A DNA stretch of 64,000 bases from Leucoraja ocellata. Lineage: Eukaryota. Both the position numbers and the translations under genes were made by a program. Shown here one piece after another: positions 1 to 64,000 of the stretch. The stretch spans positions 11,904,001 through 11,968,000 of the forward strand of contig JAWMAR010000006.1 of NCBI GenBank assembly GCA_036785375.1, read 5' to 3'. How positions within the stretch are numbered: position 1 is the first letter of the stretch; the number at the start of each line of letters is the position of its first letter. Under the pieces are notes generated by a model that was not told the DNA's origin, searched no databases, and saw only the letters and a list, made by a program, of their open reading frames with translations.

Positions 1-2914
1 ACCTGGAAGCAAAGAAAGAAACATAGGTAGTTTACAACCAACAGTATGAACTTTGAATTTTCCTATTTTAGGTAACTTCTAACAAAGCCCCCCCCCCCCC
101 CCTTCTGTGCACCACCTGGATTCACACGTATTTCACCCCTCCTGTAAGTGAGGATGCCTTAGAATCATAGAGGCATACTGCGTGGGAAAAGGCCCTTCAG
201 CCCCATTTGACCACACCAGCCAACGTCCTAGCTAAATAGTCCCACCTGCCTATGTTTGATCCATACACCTCCAAACCAGTCCTATCGATGTACCTGTCGA
301 ACTTTGCGATAGTCCCTGCCTCAACAACCTCTCCTGGCAGCTCGTTCCATACACTCACCACCCTTTGTATGAAAATTTGACCCCTCAGATTCCTATTAAA
401 TGTTTGCACCTTAAACCCATGTCCTCTGGTCCTCTATTCCCTTTCTCTGCACAAGAGACTCTGTGCATCTAACCAATCTATTCCTCTCATGATTTTCTAC
501 ACCTCAATCAGATCACCCTCATCCTCTTGTGCTCCAAGGAATAGAGACCCAGCCTGCTCAAACTCTCCCTATAGCTCAGATCCTCGAATACTGGCAACAT
601 CCTTGTAATTATTCTCTGTACCCATTCCAGCTTGACAACATCTTTCCTATAACATGGTGAACATAATACCCTTAATGCGGCCTCACCAGCATCTTATATA
701 ACTCTAGCATGACCTCCCAACATCTATACTCGATACACTGCTGAAGTCCAATGTGCCAAAAGCCTTTTTGACCACCCTATCTACATGTGGCTCCTCCTTC
801 ATGGAATTATGTACCTGTACTCTTAGATCCCCCTGGTCTATAACACTCCCAAGGGCCCTATCATTCACTGTGTAGGTCCTGCCCATGTTTGACTTTCCAA
901 AATGTAACACCTCACACCTTGGTTCCATCAACCATTCCTCAGCCAACTTGGCCAGCTGATCAAGATCCTGCTGTAAGTTAGCACATTTTCACTACCTGCA
1001 ATACCATCTGAAAACTTGTTAATCTTCCCATGTACATTGTCACCCAAATCATTGATATGGATGACAAACAGTAACAGGCCCAGCAGCAAACCCTGAGGCA
1101 CATCACTGGTCACAGGCATCCATTCTAAGAAGCAACCTTCCACCATCACCCTTTGCTTCTTTCCATAAAGCCAATTTTCTATCCATTCAGCTACCTCTCC
1201 TTGGATCCCGTGCGATCTGACCTTCCAAGGCAGCCTACCATGCAGAACCTTGTAGAATGCTTTGCTGAAGTCTATTTATACACATCTATAACTGTGCCCT
1301 CATCAACCCTTTTGGTCACATCTTCAAAATCTCAATCGGATTCATGAGGCACAAAGTCCCATAAACAAAACCATGCTGACTTTCCCTAATCAGCCATTGC
1401 CCAACTAAATACATGTATATTGTATCCCTCAGAATACTCTTCAGTAAATTTCCAACTACATGTGTTAAGCTCACAGGCCTATAGTCCCTGCCTTTGCTCT
1501 GCAGCCCTTTTTGAATCACGGATAGATCTGATCAGGCCCAGAAGATTTGACTGCCTTCATACACGATAATACCTTCAGCACTTCTTCAACTGCAATATTA
1601 ACTTTAATGAATGACTTTAAGATTTGCTTTCCCAAAGTCCATCGGATATCATACCTGGTCGTACCGGATCTGAATATGTAATTACCAAACAATTTGACCC
1701 CAGGTCGACACCTACAATATGTTGCGTGAATAACAATATGTACAGAAACACTGTGGAATATTTTGATAAGTACCGTCTACATAGAGGCTGTAGCGTTGCA
1801 GCGCGTATGGACCCAGTGAGGAACTGTTAATGGTCTTCTCTATAAATACATCGTAAACATCTTCACGGCTGATGGGTTCCATGGTGGACACGTTTTGGAA
1901 TGAACAATTAGCTGTCACTCGGGTGCTGTGAACCATTACCTCACTGCAAAAACAGCAAAAGACATTTGTAGTAAGTGGAAACGAATTTGGTGCAAAGTTG
2001 TTTGCAGTGTTCGCAAGAGAACAGCTGAAAATTTTCCGTGGCTGATTACAAGAGGAGAAGCAATGGTCAGAGATATCTAAATTTGTCCGTCTCTGCCACA
2101 TCAGCTCCTCTAATGAGTCATCCCATTTTAGGGCATCAGAGATGTCCACTTTCTTGATAAATGTGTATTAGCCTTGCTTGATTAAATGGGTCACTCCTCC
2201 ACGTCATCTTCTAGATCTGTTCTCACATCACCCTCACCCAGATGACACAAGGACAGAGTTCATATCGTCCCTTGCTTTCACCACACCTCGTCCAGGTTTC
2301 TCACCCCTACTGCAATTTGTCTGAAAAGGGCCCGATCCAAAACTTTGTCTAGTCATTTGCTGTCTGTCCCGTTGAGATACTCCAGTATATTATGGGGTTT
2401 TTTTCTGATAGCATTTATATTAACTTTGCATTGAAATGTGTGGGAAATTTGCTTATGAGACTTTTGGGTTTGCAACTTGGAAGCAGAGCATGAACAATTG
2501 GAAGTTAGACAAAAATGCTGGAGGATCTCAGCGGGTGAGGCAGCATCTATGGAGAGAAGGAATAGGCAACGTTTCGGGTTGAGACAAAGGAATTTTGCGT
2601 AGCATAATAGAAAAGTTACTCTAGTTACCTGAATGATTCCACAACACACTTTAATAATGTTGCATTGATACTGCTGTTATTGAACAGGTCCGTGAGCTGT
2701 GGGCATTAAGAAAAATTGTGTCAGAATGAGAGGTGAAAAAGGAAGGATGAAGTCATATATCAGCAGGGAAGTATCTTGTACAAATCTCTCACCTCAGCTG
2801 CAATCATGGTTGCTGTATCTGAAGGGTTTGCTTGAATTTCTTCAATAGACAGACTGTCAACAATGAATGTCACGTTGTACTCAATGGGATTTATTACCTC
2901 GATTGGAACTGGAA
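1..2914 (-). CDS. SEA module M1 (divergent outer type)
   Basis: Exons A 2908/2914-2793, B 2696-2629 (LTDLFNNSSINATLLKCVVESFS), C 1943-1774, D 1669-1655 (DPVRP, GT donor). E begins at position 2 after acceptor tttgcttccag and is cut by the window edge. Confidence 0.85.
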
Positions 2915-5900
2915 CTGTGGTAATAGAGTAAGCAATTCAACATTTGAAATCAGAGATTACATTTCATTTGTGCTCAGTTTGTTGTGAAGTGGTCTAGGTC
3001 ATGCTGAGGTTGTGCAATGCTTTTTGTTATTTTGATTATTTTTTTTACAATCATAAGGGGAAAACAAACTGCTGTTATAACCTAGCATTCCAGCAGTATC
3101 TGAGAAGGGAATTGACAGTTGACAGTCAATTTCAGATCTGAAATGTTGTCTATCCATTTCCTTCCGCGGGTATTGCCGGACTTATTGAGTGCCTCCAGTA
3201 TTTTGTTGTTCGCTCCAGTTTCCAGCATCTGTAACCTCTTATGTCTCCCCTTTGGAATCAAAGCCTCTACTTTTCCTTCTTCATCCACAATTTCCCTTCA
3301 ATTATAATGAAAGCTATAAAATATCATACTGGGAGATCCAATCCTGATCATCCACCACCTGACTCATTGTAGTGATAGTAGGCGGAGTACAACCCAGTTT
3401 TGGTTTTATTTTGTGGTTCTTTGCGAATTATGTATGCTTTTAGTACTTGGAGATCTCCATATACTTGATGTGAGCAGAGCATGTAGCTGAATTACCTGGA
3501 TTCTCTTGATTGTTTGGATTATTTAGTTCAGGAACAATTTGTGGCTCTGTAAAGAAAAATTCAAAGAAACAATTGGAATAATGTTATTAAAAGCTATGAA
3601 ATCATCATAAATTTGTACAAACAGAAAATGCTCCAAACTAATTCAAGGATATGTGCCAAGACAATTGGAATTCAAATTTCTTGGATCTTATAGTACACCT
3701 GTTATATGTGTTTTGACCTTAATTTTTGTTATCTCGCTCTTTGTCAGCTGACCCAGTCATAAAATCTTTCGCCAAATAAATCACAACAATTTGCTTCTCA
3801 GGTTATTTTAATGTTTGTTTCTCTCTAAATGAAAGCAGTGGTGCAACATGGGAATTATTTGTCAAGGTCCACTGGTAAGACAGTTTTTCAAGTACAGGTG
3901 TCTAAAAGGCATTTGATTTAAGAAGTCATAAAAAAACATGTTCAACTTTGATGAAATTCTGCACAGTTTAAGCAACAGATGGAGAAGAACAAATATAACA
4001 TGAGACAATTGTTTGATGAATTGATACAAACTCACCATTGACATTGTGCTGTACAGTGAAATCTGAAAACAAACAAGGAAATATATGTAGGACCAATCCA
4101 ATGGCATGAACTTTAAATTCTTCAAATTTAGTCAAACTTTAAAAACCCACCAACCACAGCAACACTGTGTCCGACTTGGGCTCGCACTTATTAAACTCCC
4201 CCCCTTGCCCTCCATCTACATTCCTTCTGCTGGCATCAAATTTGCAACTTCAATCTTTTTCCCTCACACTTTATGTTTTTTCGTCATTCACCTTCGTCCA
4301 ACCTTCTGCGTATCTAAACTCCACCTCACCTGTGTCCACCTATTAATGACGTGCTTTGTACTGCCTCCCTTCTCTTCCAGCTTTCTTCTCCCCCCACCAC
4401 CCCACAATCAGTTCGAAGAAGGATCTCGTGCTGAAGTGTCACCCATTCACGTTCTCCAGTGATGCTGCCTGACCCACTTTGTGCCTTCTAAAAAAACATG
4501 TAACTTTTTAATGGAGTTTTTTTTTGGGTCTACTTGAACATTTATCAGGAAGAAGACATTCTTATGAGTGGGTCATATCAGTGTGGCAGTGTGTTTGTGC
4601 AAAGGCAGACTCCGAAGAGCAAGACTGAATGATTTTAAGGTTTGCTTTCTCAGATCCCATTGGATATCATGCCTGGCTGTCACTGGTCTAAATATGTAAA
4701 TACCTAAGAACTTGTCTATAAATCAATAGTTACCGTAGATTGGACAAATACAATATGAAGAAAAACACGAAAGAATATTTTGATAAGTACCGTCTACATA
4801 GAGGCTGTTGCTTTGCAGTTCGTATGAACCCAGTGAGAAAATGCCATCGGTCATCTCGCTAAATTCAGCATAAACAACTTCTCGGTTGATGGGTTCCATG
4901 GTGGACACATTTTGGAATGAACAATTAGCTGTCACTCTGGTGCTGTGAACCATTTCCTCTCTGCGAAAAAGCAAAAGACATTTGTGATGTGCAAAATAAT
5001 TTAATGCAAAGTTGTTTGCAATGCCAGCAAGTGCACAGCTGAAATGTTGCCATGGCCCATTACTGGTGTCTAAGCAATGGGTTGAGAAATCTGATTCTCA
5101 ATTTGTCCGTCTCCAGCCCATCTTCAACTACGATGTGGCTTCCCATTCTATGGCATCAATTATGTCATATTAGCCTTATATATATGTAGCCTTATGATAT
5201 ATATTAGCCTTGGCTGTTTTAGATGGATCCCTCACCCAATTCACCCGAGATCTGCTCTCACACCACCCTCATCCAGACGGAACAAGGATAGAGTTCCCCC
5301 CATCCTTAGTTTACACCCCACCTGTCACTAACACCACCTAATGCATTTGCTGCACCTTATGTGGTGTCTGATACGTTTGCAAGACCAAACAGTATCTAGG
5401 TGACTTTTTCGCCAAACATGTGCGGTCATCCAAGGTCTGCTGGAAATCATGGTTCAAAAACAATTTAACTCCCTTTCCATTCCCAAACCAATCTGTCTGT
5501 ACTGGGCGTCATCCATTGCAGAGTGAGGCCACACTCAAACTGGAGGAACAGCACCTCATATTTCGAAGAGTAGCTTAGAGCCTTATTTGTCTGTCTCACT
5601 TAAGCGATATTTTCGGTGACTGCTGGCAACTGTCACAGTCATAGCAGGTCACCGAAAAACCGGCGGCTGGACCTCCCTACGACAAAACTTTGCCTCGCCA
5701 GCGTCTACAGAATTGCTGCCTGACTCACAAGGAGACTCTGGTACATTGTACCTTTTTCCTGGTAGAATTTATATTAATTCTACATGATATTTGTGGGAAA
5801 TTTGCTTATTAATTTTTAATTAAATTGAAATTAATGCGTTTGCAAATTGGAATTATTGAGTGTTATCAATTTTATCATTTAATAGGAAAGTTATTTTGAG

Positions 5901-50900: not shown

Positions 50901-53900
50901 TGGTCAGAGAAATACGACTCTCAATTTGTCCGATTCCAGCCCATCTATAGCCAGAGGGAAACCATATTTAAGTTGGAGGAAAATCATCTCATTATCTGAT
51001 GTGTGGATTTGGAGCTTAACAATATGAATCATTATACGTGACAACCTACAAACTAACTGTATGAACAATGAGTTGTTCAATTTTACGTGTCAACCTACAA
51101 ATGCCCTTCTACCCCACAATTTCCCCCCCCCCCCTCTTCCCTGTGCTACATTTGAATATGCACCCATTTTTCCCTTTTCCCTTCACCCCTTCCCTACCCC
51201 CATTCTCCTCTTCCACTATGCCTCCTCAACTTTCATGATTAATTTGACTTCTATGCCTAACTTCCTATGTTGAACCATTTGTCTTCTCATCTCAGGATTT
51301 TCTGTAACCATTTGCCAATCAACTGCTCCCTCCCCATCACTTGTATCCCCGTATCACTTGCCACACTTTGTCATCCCCTTCCCACCTCTCTTGCAGCTTT
51401 CTCACCCCTACTGCAATCAGTCTGAAGTAGGGCCCGACCCAAAACTCTGCCAACCCATGTTCTCCAGATTTTCCGACTGACCCACTGAGATACTCCAGCA
51501 CATCGTGTCTTTTTCTGTTAGAATTTATTTTGACTTTGCACTGATATTTGTAGGAAATGTGTTTATGAGAATATCATCTTTACCATTTGGAATCACTGTG
51601 CATTAACAATTTGGAGACAAAGGAATGCAATTTTCATGATTTAATTGGAAATTTTTTTGTGAGTTACCTGAATGATTTCACGTCACATTTTAAGAATGTT
51701 GCATTGACACTGCTGTTCTCAAACAGGTCTGTGAGCTGGGGGCAAGAAAAATGGTGTTAGAATTAGACTTAAAAAGGGGATGAATAAGTAGTATATCAGC
51801 AGACAACAAATTGGTAAACTCTCTCACCTCATTTGCAATCATGGTTGCTGTTTCTGAAGGGTTTGCTTGAATTTCTTCAATAGACAGATTGTCAACAATG
51901 AAAGTCACGTTGTATTTAATGGGATTTGTTACCTCGGTTGGAACTGGAAGTGTGGAAATAGAGTAAGCAATTTAGCATGTTGTGAGTACCACGATTTTCA
52001 AATAGTTTAAAAACTGTTTCCCAGTACTGGATTTCTACAGAGTTTAAGCAACAGATGGAGAAGAACAAATGTAGCTTAAGACAATTATTTCATGCATTTG
52101 ATACAAACTCACCATTGACATTGTGCTGTACATTGAAATCTGAAAACAGAGAAATAAAGGTTGAAATTTAAATGTTCAAGTTTAGGCAACCTTTAAAAAC
52201 CCACCAACCACAACAACAACTGGGCATGCACCTAGTAAACTCCTCCCACTTGCCCTCCATCTACATTCCTTTTTCTGGCTTCAAATTTGCAACTCTTCAA
52301 TCCTTTTCCCCCAGACTTTATGTTTTTTTCGTCTCTGGCCTTTGTCCAACCTTCTGCGTATCTAAACTCCACCTCACCTGTGTCCACCTATTAATGACGT
52401 GCTTTGTACTGCCTCCCTTCTCTTACAGCTTTCTTCTCACCCCACCACCCCACAATCAGTCGGAAGAAGGATCTTGAGCTGAAATGTCACCCGTTCACGT
52501 TCTCCAGTGATGCTGCCTGACCCGCTGAGTTACTCTAGCACTTTGTTTCTTCTAAAGAATCATGCAACTTTTTAATCGGGTATTTTTTCCCTCTCCTTGA
52601 ACATTTATCAGGAAGAAAATCCTTTTGTGAGTGGGTCATACCAGTGAGGCAGTTTGTTTGTGCAAAAGCAGGCTCCGAAAAGCAAGACTGTGAATGATTT
52701 TAAGGTTTGCTTTCTCAGATCCTATAGGATATCATGCCTGGTTGTCCCGGATCTAAATATGTAAATACCAAAGAACTTGTCTATAAAACAATAGTTACCG
52801 TAGATTGGACAAATACAATATGAAGAAAAACACCAAGGAATATTTTGATAAGTACCGTCTACATAGAGGCTGTTGCTTTGCAGTTCGTATGGCCCCAGTG
52901 AGGAAATGTCTTTGGTCATCTCACTAAATTCATCATAAACATCTTCTCGGTTGATGGGTTCCATGGTGGACACATTTTGAAATAAACATTCAGCTGTCAC
53001 TATGGTGCTGTTAACCATTTCCTCTCTGCGACAAAGCAAAAGACATTTGTGATAAGTGTAAAATAATTTGGTGCAAAGTTGTTTGCAATGCCAGCAAGAG
53101 CACAGCTGAAATGTTGCCATGGCTCATTACTGGTGTCTAAGCAATGGTCAGAGAAATACGACTCTCAATTTGTCCGATTCCAGCCCATCTATAGCCAGAG
53201 GGAAACCATATTTAAGTTGGAGGAAAATCATCTCATTATCTGATGTGTGGATTTGGAGCTTAACAATATGAATCATTATACGTGACAACCTACAAACTAA
53301 CTGTATGAACAATGAGTTGTTCAATTTTACGTGTCAACCTACAAATGCCCTTCTACCCCACAATTTCCCCCCCCCCCTCTTCCCTGTGCTACATTTGAAT
53401 ATGCACCCATTTTTCCCTTTTCCCTTCACCCCTTCCCTACCCCCATTCTCCTCTTCCACTATGCCTCCTCAACTTTCATGATTAATTTGACTTCTATGCC
53501 TAACTTCCTATGTTGAACCATTTGTCTTCTCATCTCAGGATTTTCTGTAACCATTTGCCAATCAACTGCTCCCTCCCCATCACTTGTATCCCCGTATCAC
53601 TTGCCACACTTTGTCATCCCCTTCCCACCTCTCTTGCAGCTTTCTCACCCCTACTGCAATCAGTCTGAAGTAGGGCCCAACCAAAAACTCTGCCAACCCA
53701 TGTTCTCCAGATTTGCCGACTGACCCGCTGAGATACTCCAGCACATCGTGTCTTTTTCTGTTAGAATTTATATTGACATTTGCACTGATATTTGTAGGAA
53801 ATGTGTTTATGAGAATATCATCTTTACCATTTGGAATCACTGTGCATTAACTATTTGGAGACAAAGGAATGCAATTTTCATGATTTAATTGGACATTTTT

Positions 53901-56900
53901 TTTGTGAGTTACCTGAATGATTTCACGTCACATTTTAAGAATGTTGCATTGACACTGCTGTTCTCAAACAGGTCTGTGAGCTGGGGGCAAGAAAAATTGT
54001 GTTAGAAATAGACATAAAAAGGGGATGAATAAGTAGTATATCAATAGAAAACTAATTGGTAAACTCTCTCACCTCATTTGCAATCATGGTTGCTGTTTCT
54101 GAAGGGTTTGCTTCAATTTCTTCAATAGACAGATTGTCAACAATGAAAGTCACGTTGTATTTAATGGGATTTGTTACCTCGGTTGGAACTGGAAGTGTGG
54201 AAATAGAGTAAGCAATTTAGCATGTTGTGAGTACCACGATTATCAAATAGTTTAAAAACTTTTTCCCAGTACTGGATTTCTACAGAGTTTAAGCAAGAGA
54301 TGGAGAAGAACAAATGTAGCGTAAGACAATTATTTCATGCATTTGATACAAACTCACCATTGACATTGTGCTGTACATTGAAATCTGAAAACAAACAGAG
54401 AAATAAAGGTTGAAATTTAAATGTTCATGTTTGGGCAACCTTTAAAAACCCACCAACCACAACAACAACTGGGCATGCACCTAGTAAACTCCTCCCACTT
54501 GCCCTCCATCTACATTCCTTTTTCTGGCTTCAAATTTGCAACTCATGTTTCCTTTCCCTCACACTTTAGGTTTTTTCGTCTCTGGCCTTTGTCCAACCTT
54601 CTGCGTATCTAAACTCCACCTCACCTGTGCCCACCTATTAATGACGTGCTTTGTACTGCCTCCCTTCTCTTACAGCTTTCTTCTCCCCCCACCACCCCAC
54701 AATCTGCCTGAAGAAGGATTTTGAGCTGAAATGTCACCCATTCACGTTCTCCAGTGATGCTACCTGACCCGCTGAGTTACTCTAGCACTTTGTTTCTTCT
54801 AAAAAGCATGCAACTTTTTAATCGGGTATTTTTTTGCCTCTCCTTGAATATTTATCAGGAGGAAAACCCTTTTTTGAGTGGGTCATACCAGTGAGGCAGT
54901 GTGTTTGTGCAAAGGCAGGCTCCGAAGAGCAAGACTGTGAATAAATTTAAGGTTTGCTTTCTCAGATCCTATAGGATATCATGCCTGGTTGTCCCCGATC
55001 TAAATATGTAAATACCAAAGAACTTGTCTATAAATCAATAGTTACTGTAGATTGGACAATTACAATATGAAGAAAAACACCAAGGAATATTTTGATAAGT
55101 ACCGTCTACATAGAGGCTGTTGCTTTGCAGTTCGTATGGCCCCAGTGAGGAAATGTCTTTGGTCATCTCGCTAAATTCATCATAAACATCTTCTCGGTTG
55201 ATGGGTTCCATGGTGGACACATTTTGAAATAAACATTCAGCTGTCACTCTGGTGCTGTTAACCATTTCCTCTCTGCGATAAAGCAAAAGACATTTGTGAT
55301 AAGTGTAAAATAATTTAGTGCAAAGTTGTTTGCAATGCCAGCAAGAGCGCAGCTGAAATGTTGCCGTGGCTCATTACTGGTGATAAAGCAATGGTCAGAG
55401 AAATCTGACTCAATTTGTCCGTCTCTAGCCCATCTATAGCCAGAGGGAGACCATATTTAAGTTGGAGGAAAATCACCTCATTATCTAATGTGTGGATTTC
55501 GAGCTTAACAACATGAATCATTTTACGTGACGACCTAAAAACTAACTGTATGAACAATGAGTTGTTCAATTTTACGTGTCAACCTACAAATGCCCTTCTA
55601 CCCCACAATTTCCCCCCCCCACTCTTCCCTGTGCTACACTTGAATATGCACCCATTTTTCCCTTTTCCCTTCACCCCTTCCCTACCCCCATTCTCCTCCT
55701 CCACTATGCTTCCTCAACTTTCATGATTAATTTGACTTCTATGCCTAACTCCCTATATTGAACCTTTTGTCTTCTCATCTCAGGATTTTCTGTAACCATT
55801 TGCCAATCAACTGCTCCCTCCCCATCACTTGTATCCCCGTATCACTTGCCACACTTTGTCATCCCTTTCCCACCTCTCTTGCAGCTTTCTCACCCCTACT
55901 GCAATCAGTCTGAAGTAGGGCCCGACCAAAAACTCTGCCAACCCATGTTCTCCAGATTTGCCGACTGACCCGCTGAGATAATCCAGCACATCGTGTCTTT
56001 CTCTGTTAGAATTTATATTGACTTTGCACTGATATTTGTAGGAAATGTGTTTATGAGATTATCATCTTTACCATTTGGAATCACTGTGCATTAACAATTT
56101 GGAGACAAAGGAATGCAATTTTCATGATTTAATTGAACATTTTTTTGTGAGTTACCTGAATGATTTCACGTCACATTTTAAGAATGTTGCATTGACACTG
56201 CTGTTCTCAAACAGGTCTGTGAGCTGGGGGCAAGAAAAATTGTGTTAGAAATAGACATAAAAAGGGGATGAATAAGTAGTATATCAGCAGAAAACTAATT
56301 GGTAAACTCTCTCACCTCATTTGCAATCATGGTTGCTGTTTCTGAAGGGTTTGCTTGAATTTCTTCAATAGACAGATTGTCAACAATGAAAGTCACGTTG
56401 TATTTAATGGGATTTGTTACCTCGGTTGGAACTGGAAGTGTGGAAATAGAGTAAGCAATTTAGCATGTTGTGAGTACCACGATTATCAAATAGTTTAAAA
56501 ACTTTTTCCCAGTACTGGATTTCTACAGAGTTTAAGCAAGAGATGGAGAAGAACAAATGTAGCGTAAGACAATTATTTCATGCATTTGATACAAACTCAC
56601 CATTGACATTGTGCTGTACATTGAAATCTGAAACCAAACAGAGAAATAAAGGTTGAAATTTAAATGTTCATGTTTAGGCAACCTTTAAAAACCCACCAAC
56701 CACAACAACAACTGGGCATGCACCTAGTAAACTCCTCCCACTTGCCCTCCATCTACATTCCTTTTTCTGGCTTCAAATTTGCAACTCTTCAATCCTTTCC
56801 CCCAGACTTTAGGTTTTTTCGTCTCTGGCCTTTGTCCAACCTTCTACGTATCTAAACTCCACCTCACCTGTGTCCACCTATTAATGACGTGCTTTGTACT

Positions 56901-59900
56901 GCCTCCCTTCTATTACAGCTTTCTTCTCCCCCCACCACCCCACAATCTGCCTGAAGAAGGATTTTGAGCTGAAATGTCACCCATTCACGTTCTCCAGTGA
57001 TGCTACCTGACCCACTGAGTTACTCTAGCACTTTGTTTCTTCTAAAAAGCATGCAACCTTTTAATCGGGTATTTTTTTGCCTCTCCTTGAATATTTATCA
57101 GGAGGAAAACCCTTTTTTGAGTGGGTCATACCAGTGAGGCAGTGTGTTTGTGCAAAGGCAGGCTCCGAAGAGCAAGACTGTGAATGAATTTAAGGTTTGC
57201 TTTCTCAGATCCTCTAGGATATCATGCCTGGTTGTCCCCGATCTAAATATGTAAATACCAAAGAACTTGTCTATAAATCAATAGTTACTGTAGATTGGAC
57301 AATTACAATATGAAGAAAAACACCAAGGAATATTTTGATAAGTACCGTCTACATAGAGGCTGTTGCTTTGCAGTTCGTATGGCCCCAGTGAGGAAATGTC
57401 TTTGGTCATCTCGCTAAATTCATCATAAACATCTTCTCGGTTGATGGGTTCCATGGTGGACACATTTTGAAATAAACATTCAGCTGTCACTCTGGTGCTG
57501 TTAACCATTTCCTCTCTGCGATAAAGCAAAAGACATTTGTGATAAGTGTAAAATAATTTAGTGCAAAGTTGTTTGCAATGCCAGCAAGAGCGCAGCTGAA
57601 ATGTTGCCGTGGCTCATTACTGGTGATAAAGCAATGGTCAGAGAAATCTGACTCAATTTGTCCGTCTCTAGCCCATCTATAGCCAGAGGGAGACCATATT
57701 TAAGTTGGAGGAAAATCACCTCATTATCTAATGTGGATTTCGAGCTTAACAACATGAATCATTTTACGTGACGACCTAAAAACTAACTGTATGAACAATG
57801 AGTTGTTCAATTTTACGTGTCAACCTACAAATGCCCTTCTACCCCACAATTTCCTCCCCCACTCTTCCCTGTGCTACACTTGAATATGCACCCATTTTCC
57901 CCTTTTCTCTTCACCCCTTCCCTACCCCCATTCTCCTCCTCCACTATGCTTCCTCAACTTTCATGATTAATTTGACTTCTATGCCTAACTTCCTATATTG
58001 AACCTTTTGTCTTCTCATCAGGATTTTCTGTAACCATTTGCCAATCAACTGCTCCCTCCCCATAACTTGTATCCCCGTATCACTTGCCACACTTTGTCAT
58101 CCCCTTCCCACCTCTCTTGCAGCTTTCTCACCCCTACTGCAATCAGTCTGAAGTAGGGCCCGACCAAAAACTCTGCCAACCCATGTTCTCCAGATTTGCC
58201 GACTGACCCGCTGAGATACTCCAGCACATCGTGTCTTTCTCTGTTAGAATTTATATTGACTTTGCACTGATATTCGTAGGAAATGTGTTTATGAGATTAT
58301 CATCTTTACCATTTGGAATCACTGTGCATTAACAATTTGGAGACAAAGGAATGCAATTTTCATGATTTAATTGGAAATTGTTTTGTGAGTTACCTGAATG
58401 ATTTCACGTCACATTTTAAGAATGTTGCATTGACACTGCTGTTCTCAAACAGGTCTGCGAGCTGGGGGCAAGATAAATTGTGTTAGAATTAGACATAAAA
58501 AGGGGATGAATAAGTAGTATATCAGCAGAAAACTAATTGGTAAACTCTCTCACCTCATTTGCAATCATTTTTGCTGTTTCTGAAGGGTTTGCTTGAATTT
58601 CTTCAATAGACAGATTGTCAACAATGAAAGTCACGTTGTATTTAATGGGATTTGTTACCTCGGTTGGAACTGGAAGTGTGGAAATAGAGTAAGCAATTTA
58701 GCATGTTGTGAGTACCACGATTTTCAAATATGTTTAAAAACTGTTTCCCAGTACTGGATTTCTACAGAGTTTAAGCAACAGATGGAGAAGAACAAATGTA
58801 GCTTAAGACAATTATTTCATGCATTTGATACAAACTCACCATTGACATTGTGCTGTACATTGAAATCTGAAAACAAACAGAGAAATAAAGGTTGAAATTT
58901 AAATGTTTGTGCAAAGGCAGGCTCCGAAGAGCAAGACTGTGAATGAATTTAAGGTTTGCTTTCTCAGATCCTATAGGATATCATGCCTGGTTGTCCCTGA
59001 TCTAAATATGTAAATACCAAAGAGCTTGTCTATAAATCAATAGTTACTGTAGATTGGACAAATACAATATGAAGAAAAACACCAAGGAATATTTTGATAA
59101 GTACCGTCTACATAGAGGCTGTTGCTTTGCAGTTCGTATGGCCCCAGTGAGGAAATGTCTTTGGTCATCTCGCTAAATTCATCATAAACATCTTCTCGGT
59201 TGATGGGTTCCATGGTGGACACATTTTGAAATAAACATTCAGCTGTCACTCTGGTGCTGTTAACCATTTCCTCTCTGCGATAAAGCAAAAGACATTTGTG
59301 ATAAGTGTAAAATAATTTGGTGCAAAGTTGTTTGCAATGCCAGCAAGAGCACAGCTGAAATGTTGCCGTGGCTCATTACTGGTGATAAAGCAATGGTCAG
59401 AGAAATCCGACTCACAACTTGTCCGTCTCCAGCCCATCTATAGTCCGAGGGAGACCATATTTAAGGTGGAGGAAAATCATCTCATTATCTGATGTGTGAA
59501 TTTGGAGCTTAACAATATGAATCATTATACGTGTCAACCTACAAACTAACTGTATGAACAATGAGTTGTTCAATTTTACGTGTCAACCTACAAATGCCCC
59601 TCTACCCCACAAATATTCCCCCACTCTTCCCTGTGCTACACTTGAATGTGCACACATTTTCCACTTTTCCCTTCACTCCTTCCCTACCCCATTCTCCACT
59701 TCCACTATGCTTCCTCAACTTTGATAATTAAGTTGTCTTTTATGCCTAACTCCCTATATTAAACATAGAAACATAGAAAATAGGTGCAGGAGTAGGCCAT
59801 TCGGCCCTTCGAGCCTGCACCGCCATTCAATATGATCATGGCTGATCATCCAACTCAGTATCCTGTTCCTGCCTTCTCTCCATGCCCCCTGATCCCTTTA

Positions 59901-62900
59901 GCCACAAGGGCGACATCTAACTCCATCTTAAATATAGCCAATGAACTGGCCTCAACTATCTTCTGCGGCAGAGAATTCCAGAGATTCACCACTCTCTGTG
60001 TGAATATTGAACCCTTTGTCTTCTCATTTTAGGATTTTCTGTAACCATTTGCCAATCAACTGCTCCCTCCCCATCACTTGTATCCCCGTATCACTTGCCA
60101 CACTTTGTCATCCCCTTCATATCTCTCTTGCAGCTTTCTCACCCCTACTGCAATCAGTCTGAAGTAGGGCCCGACCAAAAACTCTGCCAACCCATGTTCT
60201 CCAGATTTGCCGACTGACCCGCTGAGATACTCCAGCACATCGTGTCTTTTTCTGTTAGAATTTATATTGACTTTGCACTGATATTTGTAGGAAATGTGTT
60301 TATGAGATTATTATCTTTACCATTTGGAATCACTGTGCATTAACAATTTGGAGACAAAGGAATGCAATTTTCATGATTTAATTGGAATTTTTTTTGTGAG
60401 TTACCTGAATGATTTCACGTCACATTTTAAGAATGTTGCATTGACACTGCTGTTCTCAAACAGGTCTGTGAGCTGGGGGCAAGAAAAATGGTGTTAGAAT
60501 TAGACATAAAAAGGGGATGAATAAGTAGTATATCAGCAGAAAACTAGTTGGTAAACTCTCTCACCTCATTTGCAATCATGGTTGCTGTTTCTGAAGGGTT
60601 TGCTTGAATTTCTTCAATAGACAGATTGTCAACAATGAAAGTCACATTGTATTTAATGGGATTTGTTACCTCGGTTGGAACTGGAACTGTGGAAATAGAG
60701 TAAGCAATTTAGCATGTTAAGAGTACCACGATTTTCAAATAGTTTAAAAACTGTTTCCCAGTACTGGAATTCAACAGAGTTTAAGCAACAGATGGAGAAG
60801 AACAAATGTAGCGTAAGCCAATTATTTCAAGCATTTGATACAAACTCACCATTGACATTGTGCTGTCCATTGAAATCTGAAAACAAACAGAGAAATATAG
60901 GTAGAACTTTAAATGTTCAAGTTTAGGCAACCTTTAAAAACCCACCAACCACAACAACACCTGGGCATGCACCTAGTAAACTCCTTCCACTTGCCCTCCA
61001 TCTACATTCCTTTTTCTGGCTTCAAATTTGCAACTCTTCAATCCTTTCCCTCACACTTTATGTTTTTCCGTCTCTGGCCTTTGTCCAACCTTCTGCATAT
61101 CTAAACTCCACCTCACCTGTGTCCACCTATTAATGACGTGCTTTGTACGGCCTCCCTTCTCTTACAGCTTTCTTCTTCTCTCCCCACCACCCCACAATCA
61201 GTCTGAAGAAGGATCTTGAGCTGAAATGTCACCCATTCACGTTCTCCAGTGATGCTGCCTGACCCGCTGAGTTACTCTAGCACTTTGTTTCTTCTAAAAA
61301 AGCATGCAACTTTTTAATGGGGTATTTTTTTCCCTCTCCTTGAATATTTATCAGGAAGAAAATCCTTTTGTGAGTGGGTCATACCAGTGAGGCAGTGTGT
61401 TTGTGCAAAGGCAGGCTCCGAAGAGCAAGACTGTGAATTAATTTAAGGTTTGCTTTCTCAGATCCTATAGGATATCATGCCTGGTTGTCCCCGATCTAAA
61501 TATGTAAATACCAAAGAACTTGTCTATAAATCAATAGTTACTGTAGATTGGACAAATACAATATGAAGGAAAACACCAAGGAATATTTTGATAAGTACCG
61601 TCTACATAGAGGCTGTTGCTTTGCAGTTTGTATGGCCCCAGTGAGGAAATGCCATCGGTCTTCTCGCTAAATATATCATAAACATCTTCTCGGTTGATGG
61701 GTTCCATGGTGGGCACATTTTGAAATAAACATTTAGCTGTCACTCTGCTGCAGGTTACCATTTCCTCTCTGCGATAAAGCAAAAGTCATTTGTGATAAGT
61801 GCAAAAGAATTTAGTGCAAAGTTTTTTGCAATGCCAGCAAGAGCACAGCTGAAATGTTGCCGTGGCTCATTACTGGTGTCTAAGCAATGGTCAGAGAAAT
61901 CCGACTCTCAATTTGTCCGTCTCCAGCCCATCTTCAAGCACGATGTGGCTTCCCATTCTAGGGCATCCATGATGTCGTCTTTCTAGTGTAAATATATATT
62001 AGCCTTGGCTGTTTTAGATGGATCCCTCACCCAAGTCTCCCCTAGATCTGCTCTCACACCACCCTCACCCAGACGGAACAATGATAGAGTTCCCCCCATC
62101 CTCAGTTGACACCCCAACTATTACTAACACCACCTAATGCATTTGCTGCACTTTATGTGGTGTCCTATACGTTAGCAAGACCAAGCAGTATTTACGTGAC
62201 TTTTTCGCCAAACATGTGCGGTCATCCAAGGTCTGCTGGAAATCCTGGTTGAAAAACAATTTATCTCCCTTGAAATTCCCAAACCAATCTGTCTGTCCTG
62301 GGCGTCATCCATTGCAGAGTGAGGCCACACTCAAACTGGAGGAACAGCACCTCATATTTCGAAGAGTAGCATAGATCCTTATGTATTTGTCCCACTTAAG
62401 TGATATTTTCAGTGACTGCCGGCCACTGCCATAGTCGTAGTAGGTCACCGAAAAACCGGCAACTGGACCCCCCTACAACAAAACTTTGCCTCGCCAGCGT
62501 CCACAGAATTGCTGCCTGACAAACTACCAGACTCTAGTACATTGTACCTTTTTCTGGTAGAAGTTATATTAATTCTACATGATATTTGTGGGAAATTTGC
62601 TTATGAGATTAATGCGTGTGCAAATTGGAATTATTGAGTGTTAACAATTGGAAATTAAAGGATGCGGTTTTTATCATTTAATAGGAAAGTTATTTTGAGT
62701 TACCTGAAGGATTCCACAACACATGTCAAGAATGTAGCATTGACATTGCTATTTTTGAACAGGTCGATGAGCTGAAAACAGTAACAATAATTGAGTCAGA
62801 ATGAGAAATAAAAAGGGTACGATGAAGTAAAACATCATCTGTAAACTAACTTGTAAAAAGCTCTCTCACCTCAGATGCAATCATGGTTGCTGTTTGTGAG

Positions 62901-63932
62901 GGGGTGTCTTGAATTTCGTCAATAGACAGGTTGTCAACAATGAATGTCACGTTGTAACTAGTGGGATTTGATTCCTCGACTGGAACTGTGGAAATAGAGG
63001 AATTCATTTAGCATGTTGCATGTACCACGATATTTCAATGGTTTGACAACTGTTTCCCTGTAATGGAATTAGTTGCAGCTGAGCAACAGATCAAAAAGAA
63101 CAAATGTGATCTGAGGCAATTGTTTGATGCATTTGAGTGAAATGTTGCACAAGATGTCGACTGGAAAATTTGTGGGTTGTATCTAGCTTTGGCCGAGAAA
63201 TCTGATTCAAAAATACTTTTGTTAAAAAAAAACCTTGCGAACAGCACAGAGAGTTTTCAATTCATTCATTTCTCAACCAAGATTGTATTTGTGAATAAAG
63301 GGCAAGGCATCATTTCACGAGTTTCAACAAATATTCTTGCAGAATATGGGTGCTGGATGTGTCATGTAAGCAGTGAACAAGCAAAGAAACCGGAAACAAT
63401 TCAATGGAAGCCCAAACTCACCAATGACAATGGGCTGCACTGTGTAACCTGGAAGCAAAGAAAGAAACATATGCTGTTTACAACCAACAGGATCAACTTT
63501 GAGTTTTCCAATTTTAAGTATCCTCGAACAAATTGCACCCTTCCCCACGTCCCTCTCCTGTGCCCCAACTGGCACAAATTTTTCCTCTCTTTAAGTCTCT
63601 TTAAGACTTTAAGATTCACTTTCCCAAAGCCCATTGGACATCAAACCTGATCCTCCTGGATCTGAATATGTAATTACCAAAGGTCTTGACTCCGTCAACA
63701 CCAACGGTAGATGGCAGGAAATAGAATACATAGAAAAAGTTGAGGATTATTTTGATAAGTACCATCAACATAGAGGCTGTCAATTTGCAATGGATATTGT
63801 CCCAGAGTGGTCATCTTATAGGTCCGCTCTCTAAATACATCATAAACCACTTCTTGCTTGATGGGTTCCATGGTGGACACATTTTGGAATGAACAATCAG
63901 CTGTAACTCTGGTGCTGTTAGCCATGACCTCT
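1..63932 (-). CDS. MUC16: Internal part of a very large spliced MUC16/CA125-like tandem SEA-domain glycoprotein gene (26 complete SEA domains plus one partial; no start, stop, signal peptide or TM segment in window)
   Basis: Repeated exon C peptide INREDVYDEFSEMTKDISSLGPYELQSNSLYVD resembles the MUC16 SEA C-terminal motif LNREQLYWELSKLTNDIEELGPYTLDRNSLYVNG (recalled, not searched). Exon A has YNVTFIVDNL (cf. FTLNFTITNL) and exon B has LTDLFENSSV..KC (cf. LKPLFKNTSV..SGC). Two conserved Cys per module. AG/GT boundaries and phases (1-0, 0-2, 2-1, 1-1, 1-1) splice in frame. Orthology to MUC16 is not proven. Confidence 0.8.
160..1560 (-). mobile_element. Decayed CR1/HER1-type LINE, RT and 3' portion, in the M1 D-E intron
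   Basis: Frameshifted ORF pieces carry CR1 ORF2 motifs: DYRPVSLT..VG, SQHGF, VTSDVPQG.LLG.LLFVIHINDL, CEVLHFGKSN, FIQRVVSVWNELPGEVVEAGT. Boundaries approximate. Confidence 0.9.
2500..2585 (-). mobile_element. Short Penelope-like terminal-repeat fragment
   Basis: The reverse strand reads gtctcaacccgaaacgttgcctattccttctctccatagatgctgcctcacccgctgagatcctccagca, the same motif family as the ...gatgctgcctgacccgctgagttactc... segments in the array introns. Family call is from recall. Confidence 0.55.
4036..6183 (-). CDS. SEA module M2
   Basis: A 6183-6068, B 5972-5905, C 4960-4791, D 4687-4673 (in-frame TGA, GC donor), E 4062-4036 (DFTVQHNVN). Confidence 0.85.
5200..5580 (+). mobile_element. Penelope-like (GIY-YIG) retroelement remnant in the B-C intron of M2; copies at about 7850-8220 (M3), 10140-10510 (M4) and 62000-62370 (M26)
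   Basis: Degenerate coding traces such as aagaccaaacagtatctaggtgactttttcgccaaacat (ETKRRLGDRFAEH-like) and gaggccacactcaaactggaggaacagcacctcatatttcg (EATLKLEEQHLIFR) resemble the Penelope GIY-YIG endonuclease C-terminus. Recognised from recall, not searched. Confidence 0.6.
5588..5720. mobile_element. MITE-like fragment with internal inverted repeat; copies at about 8235-8360, 10527-10650 and 62388-62520
   Basis: TTTTCGGTGAC-TGCT ... AGCA-G-GTCACCGAAAA inverted repeat inside a GC-richer patch beginning tgtcccacttaagcga. Found only in M2-M4 and M26. Confidence 0.45.
6353..8826 (-). CDS. SEA module M3
   Basis: A 8826-8711, B 8615-8548, C 7615-7446, D 7342-7328, E 6379-6353. Confidence 0.85.
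6480..6790 (+). mobile_element. Penelope-like 3' end remnant in the D-E intron (representative; present in M2-M26 except M16, M17 and M25)
   Basis: Pyrimidine-rich tract followed by ctgaagaagg...gaaatgtcacccattcacgttctccagtgatgctgcctgacccgctgagttactctagca. Confidence 0.5.
6973..7318 (+). mobile_element. 5'-truncated CR1-type LINE 3' end, unique to M3
   Basis: Interrupts the module consensus ctatagga|tatcatgcc. Encodes TRGHDFRIKEQKFRGNMRGNFFTQRVVAVWNELPVEVVEAG...GRWD* followed by a 3' UTR. Confidence 0.92.
8996..11118 (-). CDS. SEA module M4
   Basis: A 11118-11003, B 10907-10840, C 9909-9740, D 9636-9622, E 9022-8996. Confidence 0.85.
11288..13361 (-). CDS. SEA module M5
   Basis: A 13361-13246, B 13153-13086, C 12203-12034, D 11930-11916, E 11314-11288. 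Confidence 0.85.
12368..12920 (+). mobile_element. Penelope-like remnant in the B-C intron of core modules M5-M25 (representative copy)
   Basis: QRETIFKLEENHLI matches the EATLKLEEQHLIF trace of the M2-type intron. It is followed by a pyrimidine-rich tract and ctgaagtagggcccgaccgaaaac...gactgacccactgagatactccagca. Confidence 0.55.
13531..15597 (-). CDS. SEA module M6
   Basis: A 15597-15482, B 15389-15322, C 14439-14270, D 14166-14152, E 13557-13531. Confidence 0.85.
15767..17833 (-). CDS. SEA module M7
   Basis: A 17833-17718, B 17625-17558, C 16674-16505, D 16400-16386, E 15793-15767. Confidence 0.85.
18003..20549 (-). CDS. SEA module M8
   Basis: A 20549-20434, B 20341-20274, C 18918-18749, D 18645-18631, E 18029-18003. 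Confidence 0.85.
19405..19647 (-). mobile_element. 243-bp CR1/HER1 3' fragment in the B-C intron of M8
   Basis: aaacatagaaacatagaaa tail, reverse-complement match to 45840-46080, flanked by ATATT direct repeat. Confidence 0.9.
20719..23265 (-). CDS. SEA module M9
   Basis: A 23265-23150, B 23057-22990, C 21634-21465, D 21361-21347, E 20745-20719. Confidence 0.85.
22121..22363 (-). mobile_element. CR1/HER1 3' fragment, M9 copy
   Basis: Same element, site and ATATT flanks as 19405-19647. Confidence 0.9.
23435..25982 (-). CDS. SEA module M10
   Basis: A 25982-25867, B 25774-25707, C 24351-24182, D 24078-24064, E 23461-23435. Confidence 0.85.
24838..25080 (-). mobile_element. CR1/HER1 3' fragment, M10 copy
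   Basis: Same element, site and flanks. Confidence 0.9.
26152..28699 (-). CDS. SEA module M11
   Basis: A 28699-28584, B 28491-28424, C 27068-26899, D 26795-26781, E 26178-26152. Confidence 0.85.
27555..27797 (-). mobile_element. CR1/HER1 3' fragment, M11 copy
   Basis: Same element, site and flanks. Confidence 0.9.
28869..30943 (-). CDS. SEA module M12
   Basis: A 30943-30828, B 30735-30668, C 29785-29616, D 29512-29498, E 28895-28869. Confidence 0.85.
31113..33178 (-). CDS. SEA module M13
   Basis: A 33178-33063, B 32970-32903, C 32018-31849, D 31744-31730, E 31139-31113. Confidence 0.85.
33348..35436 (-). CDS. SEA module M14
   Basis: A 35436-35321, B 35228-35161, C 34265-34096, D 33992-33978, E 33374-33348. 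Confidence 0.85.
35605..37666 (-). CDS. SEA module M15
   Basis: A 37666-37551, B 37458-37391, C 36508-36339, D 36235-36221, E 35631-35605. Confidence 0.85.
37837..39677 (-). CDS. SEA module M16 (short D-E intron)
   Basis: A 39677-39562, B 39469-39402, C 38271-38102, D 37998-37984, E 37863-37837. Confidence 0.85.
38758..39000 (-). mobile_element. CR1/HER1 3' fragment, M16 copy
   Basis: Same element, site and flanks. Confidence 0.9.
39848..41688 (-). CDS. SEA module M17 (short D-E intron)
   Basis: A 41688-41573, B 41480-41413, C 40282-40113, D 40009-39995, E 39874-39848. Confidence 0.85.
40769..41011 (-). mobile_element. CR1/HER1 3' fragment, M17 copy
   Basis: Same element, site and flanks. 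Confidence 0.9.
41858..44174 (-). CDS. SEA module M18
   Basis: A 44174-44059, B 43966-43899, C 42769-42600, D 42496-42482, E 41884-41858. Confidence 0.85.
43256..43497 (-). mobile_element. CR1/HER1 3' fragment, M18 copy
   Basis: Same element, site and flanks. Confidence 0.9.
44344..47209 (-). CDS. SEA module M19 (LINE inserted next to the exon C acceptor)
   Basis: A 47209-47094, B 47001-46934, C 45257-45088, D 44984-44970, E 44370-44344. Confidence 0.8.
45288..46080 (+). mobile_element. Young 5'-truncated CR1/HER1-type LINE (793 bp), unique to M19
   Basis: Stop-free ORF2 C-terminus to 45985 (QRDLGVMVHQSLK, LYRVLVRPHLEYCVQFWSP, RRLRGDLIETYKILKG, FFTQRVVNLWNSLP), 3' UTR, (tttctatg)n tail, and putative TAA target duplication at 45285-45287 and 46081-46083. 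Confidence 0.96.
47378..49699 (-). CDS. SEA module M20
   Basis: A 49699-49584, B 49491-49424, C 48294-48125, D 48021-48007, E 47404-47378. Confidence 0.85.
48781..49022 (-). mobile_element. CR1/HER1 3' fragment, M20 copy
   Basis: Same element, site and flanks as 19405-19647. Confidence 0.9.
49869..51943 (-). CDS. SEA module M21
   Basis: A 51943-51828, B 51735-51668, C 50781-50612 (NSTIVT variant), D 50508-50494, E 49895-49869. Confidence 0.85.
52113..54188 (-). CDS. SEA module M22
   Basis: A 54188-54073, B 53980-53913, C 53025-52856 (NSTIVT variant), D 52752-52738, E 52139-52113. Confidence 0.85.
54358..56431 (-). CDS. SEA module M23
   Basis: A 56431-56316, B 56223-56156, C 55272-55103, D 54999-54985, E 54384-54358. 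Confidence 0.85.
56601..58669 (-). CDS. SEA module M24
   Basis: A 58669-58554, B 58461-58394, C 57515-57346, D 57242-57228, E 56627-56601. Confidence 0.85.
58840..60680 (-). CDS. SEA module M25 (short D-E intron)
   Basis: A 60680-60565, B 60472-60405, C 59274-59105, D 59001-58987, E 58866-58840. Confidence 0.85.
59761..60003 (-). mobile_element. CR1/HER1 3' fragment, M25 copy
   Basis: Same element, site and flanks as 19405-19647. Confidence 0.9.
60850..62985 (-). CDS. SEA module M26 (divergent, extra Cys)
   Basis: A 62985-62870 (VPVEESNPTSYNVTFIVDNLSIDEIQDTPSQTATMIASE), B 62771-62704 (LIDLFKNSNVNATFLTCVVESFR), C 61768-61599, D 61495-61481, E 60876-60850. Confidence 0.85.
63422..63932 (-). 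CDS. SEA module M27 (partial, divergent outer type; exons A and B lie beyond the window)
   Basis: C 63932-63763 (EVMANSTRVTADCSFQNVSTMEPIKQEVVYDVFRERTYKMTTLGQYPLQIDSLYVD), D 63661-63647 (DPGGS, GT donor), E 63448-63422 (GYTVQPIVI, donor gtgagt). Confidence 0.85.
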
Positions 63933-64000
63933 CTGCAAAAAAGCAAAAGACATTTATAAAAATAATTTAGTGCAAAGTAGTTGCAATGTTAGAAAGAGCA

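Follow-up and report, generated by a model that had tools for sequence, protein, structure and literature searches.

The window, a stretch of 64,000 nucleotides of contig C6 (11,904,001-11,968,000), is in all probability (we would say about nine chances in ten) the central array of an intact skate gene of the MUC16 family, whose four-exon repeats are predicted to fold as SEA domains and whose product, a predicted transmembrane mucin of 6,011 residues, is likely a long, N-glycan-coated spacer of the epithelial glycocalyx. The gene is a member of a known family, and its relatives are already annotated as mucin-16-like. An earlier note on this DNA had called the array hidden; this word says too much, since NCBI already names multi-SEA mucin-16-like proteins in relatives. 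What is presented here is a complete model for a gene that the databases keep only in fragments.

The repeat array and the complete gene model

When the window was compared with itself using BLAST, a tandem array with a period of 2.0-3.0 kb was observed over its entire length. Tandem Repeats Finder fails to detect this array because its period limit is 500. An exon scan of the minus strand found exon C (170 nt) 27 times and exons A (116 nt), B (68 nt) and E (27 nt) 26 times each. All 105 of these exons have AG...GT ends and no stop, their phases fit together in the order E(1-1) A(1-0) B(0-2) C(2-1), and the exons within the window sum to 10,127 nt, or about 3,375 aa. The earlier note's count of at least 27 repeats, its open frame through A, B, C and E and its estimate of more than 3300 aa in the window were thus confirmed, and an extra E exon that terminates at window base 1 accounts for the start of its feature. 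The main features of the window are as follows.

1..63932, minus strand: central SEA array, 26 full E-A-B-C units and one further C (SEA 8 to 34 of 43)
63763..63932, minus strand: first exon C of the window, 170 nt, encoding the latter half of an SEA domain
63422..63448, minus strand: linker exon E, 27 nt, phase 1-1, also in NCBI model P0001
62870..62985, minus strand: exon A, 116 nt, from the exon scan
62704..62771, minus strand: exon B, 68 nt, bearing the first loop Cys; joined to C in a contig of run X2 (62704/61768, intron ends GT..AG)
61599..61768, minus strand: exon C, 170 nt, from the exon scan and a spliced contig
61481..61495, minus strand: "exon D", 15 nt, an intronic pseudo-exon with a GC donor, skipped; one of 27 window copies
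60850..60876, minus strand: exon E, 27 nt, core type, from the exon scan
60565..60686, minus strand: exon A, whose tandem acceptors give a length of 116 nt (from 60680) or 122 nt (from 60686)
60405..60472, minus strand: exon B, 68 nt, core type, from the exon scan and a spliced contig
59105..59274, minus strand: exon C, 170 nt, core type; alone, a weak Pfam SEA match (E 0.003)
13086..58866, minus strand: homogenised core, 20 units with exons about 99% identical, not colinear with contig C864
16975..30275, minus strand: four 2,716-2,717-bp units, mutually 99.4-99.9% identical, without a full-length match in C864
4673..4687, minus strand: copy of pseudo-exon D with an in-frame stop
3496..3546, minus strand: linker exon F, 51 nt, phase 1-1, which NCBI model P0008 also contains
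1774..1943, minus strand: final exon C of the window, diverged type, from the exon scan

The first exon C (63763-63932) is 100% identical to the NCBI mucin-16-like model P0001 of Leucoraja erinacea, which agrees with the earlier attribution of the DNA to a cartilaginous fish, and its sole PDB match is MUC16. Two features had been missed in the earlier note: the 122-nt alternative of exon A, whose acceptor is possible in 8 of the 26 window copies, and the 51-nt exon F, which recurs just once, ahead of the first SEA and beyond the window.

Several observations concern the introns. One B-C intron (1,676 nt) carries a larger insertion at 45218-46079. It contains a 255-codon plus-strand ORF, which we take to resemble the nearby LINE reverse-transcriptase fragments, and a 244-bp piece of it matches nine other introns in inverted orientation. 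Short interspersed-repeat fragments at 61210-61290 and 62300-62460 attracted thousands of reads in all four sequencing runs. Length classes of the B-C and C-E introns (about 880, 1130 and 1355; 238 and 720) mark sub-lineages of units.

The gene was built with 100 kb of flank on either side of the window and spans C6 11,998,383 to 11,869,280 on the minus strand. From its 5' end the gene has a start exon of 70 nt and a PTS exon of 1,215 nt, then F and 43 SEA units, and at its 3' end a TM exon of 113 nt followed by a tail exon of 93 nt. The model has 176 exons and 6,011 aa with 0 non-canonical sites and 0 internal stops; it is our splice of genomic exons, and no full-length transcript was seen. 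By exon order, 39 of the 43 units have four exons, and linker exon F occurs twice. The start exon matches residues 1-23 of P0002 (the signal peptide was judged by eye), and the PTS exon (405 codons, 46% P/T/S) is 96% identical to an NCBI mucin-16-like protein of Leucoraja erinacea, which marks the genome as that of a skate near this species. The TM exon (C6 11,870,117-229) and the tail exon (C6 11,869,280-372; a tail of 30 residues) were found to the left of the window, where the earlier note had pointed. Just 5' of the TM exon lies a 200-N gap (C6 11,870,487-11,870,686), which contig C864 bridges with about 1.9 kb; this sequence holds one weak exon candidate, left out of the model. The 6,011-aa model contains 220 N-glycosylation sequons. 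All 43 units have the Cys pair (with a spacing of 19 in 40 of them), and the inter-SEA linkers have 19 residues with 11% S/T. In a few units the loop pair is accompanied by one or two further Cys (61599-61768 / 62870-62985 region; SEA 1, 7, 42 and 43), and such free cysteines could permit cross-links.

The NCBI models of the little skate imply a number of short mucin-16-like genes standing apart, or else a secreted, truncated form, and we regard this as very unlikely. At least four separate models do cover the matching region, namely P0002 (5' end), P0001, P0008 and P0129/P0010 (3' end), and no single contig of the runs spans the whole array. However, both genomic contigs have one signal exon and one TM-tail pair flanking an in-frame array (43 units in C6), P0001 and P0008 terminate by read-through from exon C into the intron, P0002 is without a TM and P0129 without a signal peptide. 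In addition, the sawfish model P0004 joins 28 SEA and the same tail in one chain. The fragmentation of the gene into at least four little-skate models is what the earlier note had expected of automated annotation, and we retain the single intact gene.

Contig C864 matches the flanks of the gene at 98.7-99.6% and carries the same gene at 398,000-516,000, with 38 SEA units, 156 exons, 5,376 aa and 0 stops. As many other genes are also found in two copies in the assembly, C864 is most likely the other haplotype. When the two contigs were compared, the outer units paired one to one (98-99.9%) and core units 11-26 were not colinear. The four 2,716-2,717-bp units could be a very recent expansion or an assembly over-expansion. 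All units are phase-symmetric, so the frame is kept at any copy number (43 versus 38), and what the two haplotypes would represent is a whole-domain, multi-exon length polymorphism with both forms in frame.

Unit structure, splicing and selection

The repeat unit consists of four exons and 127 aa, not of five exons. The earlier note had included a 15-nt exon D and likened the unit to the five exons of human MUC16, and the idea of an ancient five-exon unit equivalent to the human one is, in our estimate, a shade less credible still than separate genes. Exon D keeps the frame and has an AG acceptor, and human MUC16 repeats do have five exons (as given in a part of PMC3431878). In the window, however, the donor of exon D is GC in 25 of 27 copies. 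Over contig C6 (n=36) the donors are 27 GC, 8 GT and 1 TA, in-frame stops occur in 3 copies and the AG acceptor is lost in 1. The 127-aa period is also found in the sawfish and stingray orthologues, and a tandem paralogue described below likewise has a four-exon unit.

Reads and contigs of four runs (X1, X2, X10 and X14) were compared with window positions 60300-63960. X1 and X2, the latter from another organism, are runs that we only guess to be RNA. In contig 8 of X2 (297 nt), C, E, A, B and C follow one another at the predicted boundaries so closely that D has no space, and exon A is in its 122-nt form. A second X2 joint links C directly to an E-type exon, and contig 1 of X1 contains an exact A-to-B joint. 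Joints at the predicted sites are therefore A-B (X1) and B-C, A-B, E-A and C-E (X2). Spliced contigs were present in two of the four runs (tissue not given), and the exons had zero read depth in the raw RNA runs X10 and X14, in each of which 5-6% was read; with the tissue not given, this zero says little. NCBI models P0001 and P0002 also omit exon D. As a fifth exon, D is rejected on account of its GC donors, its stops and the C-to-E joints that skip it; occasional inclusion at the copies with a GT donor is possible.

Purifying selection acts on the exons of the four-exon array. The exon sequences of the 20 core units diverge by 1.1% and have 0 internal gaps, and the four introns diverge by 2.4-3.9% with 21, 14, 2 and 0 distinct gaps, in line with the many intronic indels and TE insertions of the earlier note. 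On average, pN/pS is 0.24 for the core and 0.43 when all 26 units are taken, and of the distinct variant codons of the core 13 are synonymous and 11 non-synonymous on 78:300 sites, values from unit copies that are related and from pairs that are not independent.

A tree was also drawn for 199 distinct SEA domains of 13 proteins. Skate units 1-37 form a single clade (support 1.0) apart from those of sawfish and stingray, and the last five or six skate SEAs pair with their sawfish, and partly catshark, counterparts. By this tree, the distal array evolves in concert and the proximal domains are conserved. Of the recent, lineage-specific expansion proposed in the earlier note, recent homogenisation is supported, but sawfish (28 SEA), stingray, sharks, lungfish and bichir have arrays too. 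Only the homogenised repeat sequence is peculiar to the species, not the presence of an array.

A neutrally duplicated array, a pseudogene or an artefact of the assembly is already largely refuted: the core units are 96-99.9% identical, both haplotypes are apparently in the assembly and four units are without a C864 match, but 0 stops or indels occur in the 86 or more SEA-unit sets of two contigs whose introns are full of indels and TE insertions, the pN/pS of 0.24 and the spliced contigs speak against a neutral array or a pseudogene, and an assembly artefact might shift the count by a few units and could not produce the array.

Family identity, possible synteny and the tandem paralogue

The MUC16-type SEA polymer of the earlier note was recovered by Pfam, PDB and fold searches. 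The near-identical NCBI models P0001 and P0002 match Pfam SEA above the cut-off (E 4e-21 and 2e-22). When single exons were used, two of three C exons gave SEA matches that fell short of the cut-off, and neither of two A exons matched. A profile made from 98 amniote MUC16 SEA domains found 43 domains in the gene model (33-91 bits). All four matches at E<=0.1 in the PDB sequence search are MUC16 SEA structures. For P0129, the top 4 of 5 PDB matches are MUC16 (E 1e-15 to 3e-13), and the best non-MUC16 match is a transmembrane-protease SEA (E 0.003); the MUC1 SEA is not among the PDB sequence matches. The AlphaFold model of P0001 has a mean pLDDT of 87.7 with low-confidence linkers, and its top five Foldseek matches are MUC16 SEA, with a target TM of 0.76-0.83 for four of the five. 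The skate Cys pair aligns with the human MUC16 Cys pair, and 22 proteins, lamprey and rodents included, can be aligned in the TM and tail.

A representative search gave 127 proteins, and names were looked up for 30. Twenty-five of these are named mucin-16, mucin-16-like, MUC16 or similar (including one "mucin-2-like" of a lamprey), and the remainder are hypothetical, unnamed or "SEA domain-containing". The relatives span sharks, rays, lungfish, bichirs, coelacanth, frogs, reptiles, rodents and lamprey. The "mucin-2-like" proteins P0069/P0130 of Lethenteron reissneri have 15 MUC16-type SEA together with a MUC16-type TM and tail, and are probably a misnamed MUC16 homologue, judged by this domain content.

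Agrin, IMPG, TMPRSS and UMODL1 were considered as other SEA families and rejected, as the model holds only PTS, 43 SEA, TM and tail. Those families have one or two SEA among other modules (LamG, EGF, protease, ZP).

MYO1F and ADAMTS10 had been predicted beforehand as neighbours, from the gene content of human 19p13.2. According to a portion of PMC8220141, this human locus includes MYO1F, ADAMTS10 and MUC16. On C6, Myosin_TH1 exons with SH3-like exons behind them were found at 11.07-11.08 Mb (a long-tailed myosin-I of MYO1E/F type), and an ADAMTS spacer exon on the same strand as the myosin-I tail gene was found at 11.17 Mb. This spacer exon is 88-89% identical to shark proteins with the mixed names ADAMTS10 and ADAMTS6-like. 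The myosin-I and ADAMTS6/10-type genes thus lie 0.7-0.8 Mb from the window; the myosin may be MYO1E or MYO1F. The myosin was found by a motif scan. A genome-wide SH3 search did not include the C6 myosin among the 150 of 325 candidates that were scored, and Atlas and PDB searches gave no name for the myosin exon. Pfam searches of 150 of the 249 filtered flank ORFs gave retroelement-type matches only.

A second minus-strand MUC16-like gene lies 3' of the window gene and begins about 42 kb beyond its tail (C6 about 11,827,500-11,626,200). Its 5' end was not found. In this gene 220-225 T/S-rich exons were detected over 122 kb with a 486-bp period, and 214 of 220 are 159 nt long; if all were used, its PTS would have roughly 11,700 or more codons. 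A PTS domain made of so many exons is striking. Next come about 30 four-exon SEA units with a period of 140 aa, including about 17 near-identical core C exons, and the gene's TM and tail match Amblyraja P0006 (C6 11,629,141-11,626,194). Between the two mucin genes, at C6 11,845,000-11,853,000, there are two local duplications of 2.0 and 1.3 kb with 98-99% identity.

In the C-terminal tree, which contains MUC16 only, has a long lamprey branch and includes an amniote last SEA that is not equivalent to the last SEA of the others, the two tail types form two elasmobranch clades (support 100/99 and 96/99). The joint elasmobranch clade has a support of 81/79, too low to date the duplication.

Candidate cleavage site, proposed function and comparison with known mucins

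A GS-V-K-V motif after the first loop Cys is present in SEA 43 only (1 of 43). It lies at the beta2-beta3 hairpin, where MUC1 cuts itself, and has Lys where MUC1 has Val. Among 26 named proteins, 17 of the 18 from non-amniotes have GS[VI] in their last SEA by pattern, and the alignment shows it in the 18th; in the penultimate SEA it was found in four of four turtles and lizards and in none of four rodents. In the SEA tree, the turtle penultimate SEA clusters with the last SEA of fishes. The penultimate SEA of human MUC16 has DSVLV, which has been likened to GSVVV of MUC1 and is uncut there (excerpts of PMC4456727 and PMC3431878). From these patterns we infer that the ancestral juxtamembrane SEA was self-cleaving, and skate SEA 43 probably keeps a predicted self-cleavage.

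The protein would enter the secretory pathway, where each SEA would close its two-Cys loop and bear about five N-glycans. The short, S/T-poor linkers of 19 residues would give a beads-on-a-string chain, which may hold the O-glycosylated PTS cap off the cell surface. The ectodomain would probably be cut at GS-V-K-V of SEA 43 and so be sheddable. Whole units may be gained and lost by unequal crossing-over or gene conversion.

A broader history can be proposed, for which the odds seem to us even. MUC16 would date to the vertebrate stem, not to land vertebrates, with a self-cleaving, MUC1-like last SEA, behind which amniotes would have added a further SEA, and mammals would have lost the Gly-Ser. 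The elasmobranch tandem copies would have split the work between a SEA chain coated almost wholly with N-glycans (38-43, with allelic length variation) and a giant O-glycan mucin (more than 220 exons). Two questions on CA125/MUC16 are made testable by this material: what role SEA repeats play where an O-glycan linker is absent, and whether the uncut human DSVLV is a relic of an ancestral self-cleavage site.

A literature search, mostly without subscription journals, brought up nothing on MUC16 from cartilaginous fishes or lampreys. The accessible parts of PMC10875768, PMC6027344, PMC12958477 and PMC4948705 have nothing on fish MUC16, and that of the last has no mention of MUC16. In the available portion of PMC1552070, Muc16 is present in chicken and not in Fugu, and so is assigned to birds and mammals but not to fish; the lamprey-to-mammal history seems undescribed in that portion, though NCBI names already imply such a history.

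The direct orthologues are in Pristis pectinata (XP_051893943.1) and Leucoraja erinacea (XP_055514609-11, P0001/P0002), which belong to the same tail clade (100/99), share the 127-aa period and correspond one to one in the last five or six SEAs. The little-skate NCBI models are fragments, and the sawfish model, with its 28 SEA, lacks the N-terminus. The second elasmobranch paralogue (for example in Amblyraja, XP_032902718.1, Mustelus and Chiloscyllium) has the same domain order and a four-exon unit, but differs in its 140-aa period, T/P-rich linkers, tail, and PTS of 220 or more near-identical 159-nt exons. A precedent for this PTS array is chicken Muc13, whose PTS is encoded by many exons (same portion of PMC1552070); it belongs to a different mucin family, and the comparison concerns the neighbour, not the window gene.

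With MUC1-type SEA mucins the skate gene shares the GS[VI] motif, placed at the hairpin of the SEA next to the membrane (GSVVV in MUC1); MUC1, MUC12, MUC13 and MUC17 have one SEA each, in contrast to the skate array (both from the same excerpt of PMC4456727).

Human MUC16 resembles the skate protein in its N-terminal PTS, tandem SEA with a two-Cys loop, single TM, tail of about 30 residues, more divergent membrane-proximal SEAs and, possibly, linkage to MYO1/ADAMTS genes. The skate has 43 or 38 SEA versus 19 human tandem repeats (from part of PMC10829539), and 43 is the highest SEA count among the proteins counted, followed by 28 in sawfish. The skate unit of 127 aa and four exons is without the S/T-rich linker of the human repeat of 156 aa and five exons; MUC16 periods in database proteins range from about 110 to 156 aa. 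The Cys loop encloses 18 residues in skate versus 19 in human MUC16, and the PTS has about 405 aa versus about 12,000. The GS-type SEA is the last in skate, whereas human has DSVLV in the penultimate. In three rodent proteins the linkers have 35-42 residues with 28-35% S/T, versus 19 residues and 11% in skate. Sequons per SEA are about 5.0 in skate versus 2.6-3.1 in Dipodomys and Urocitellus; as 4-6 are usual in non-mammals, dense N-glycan sites look ancestral rather than skate-specific.
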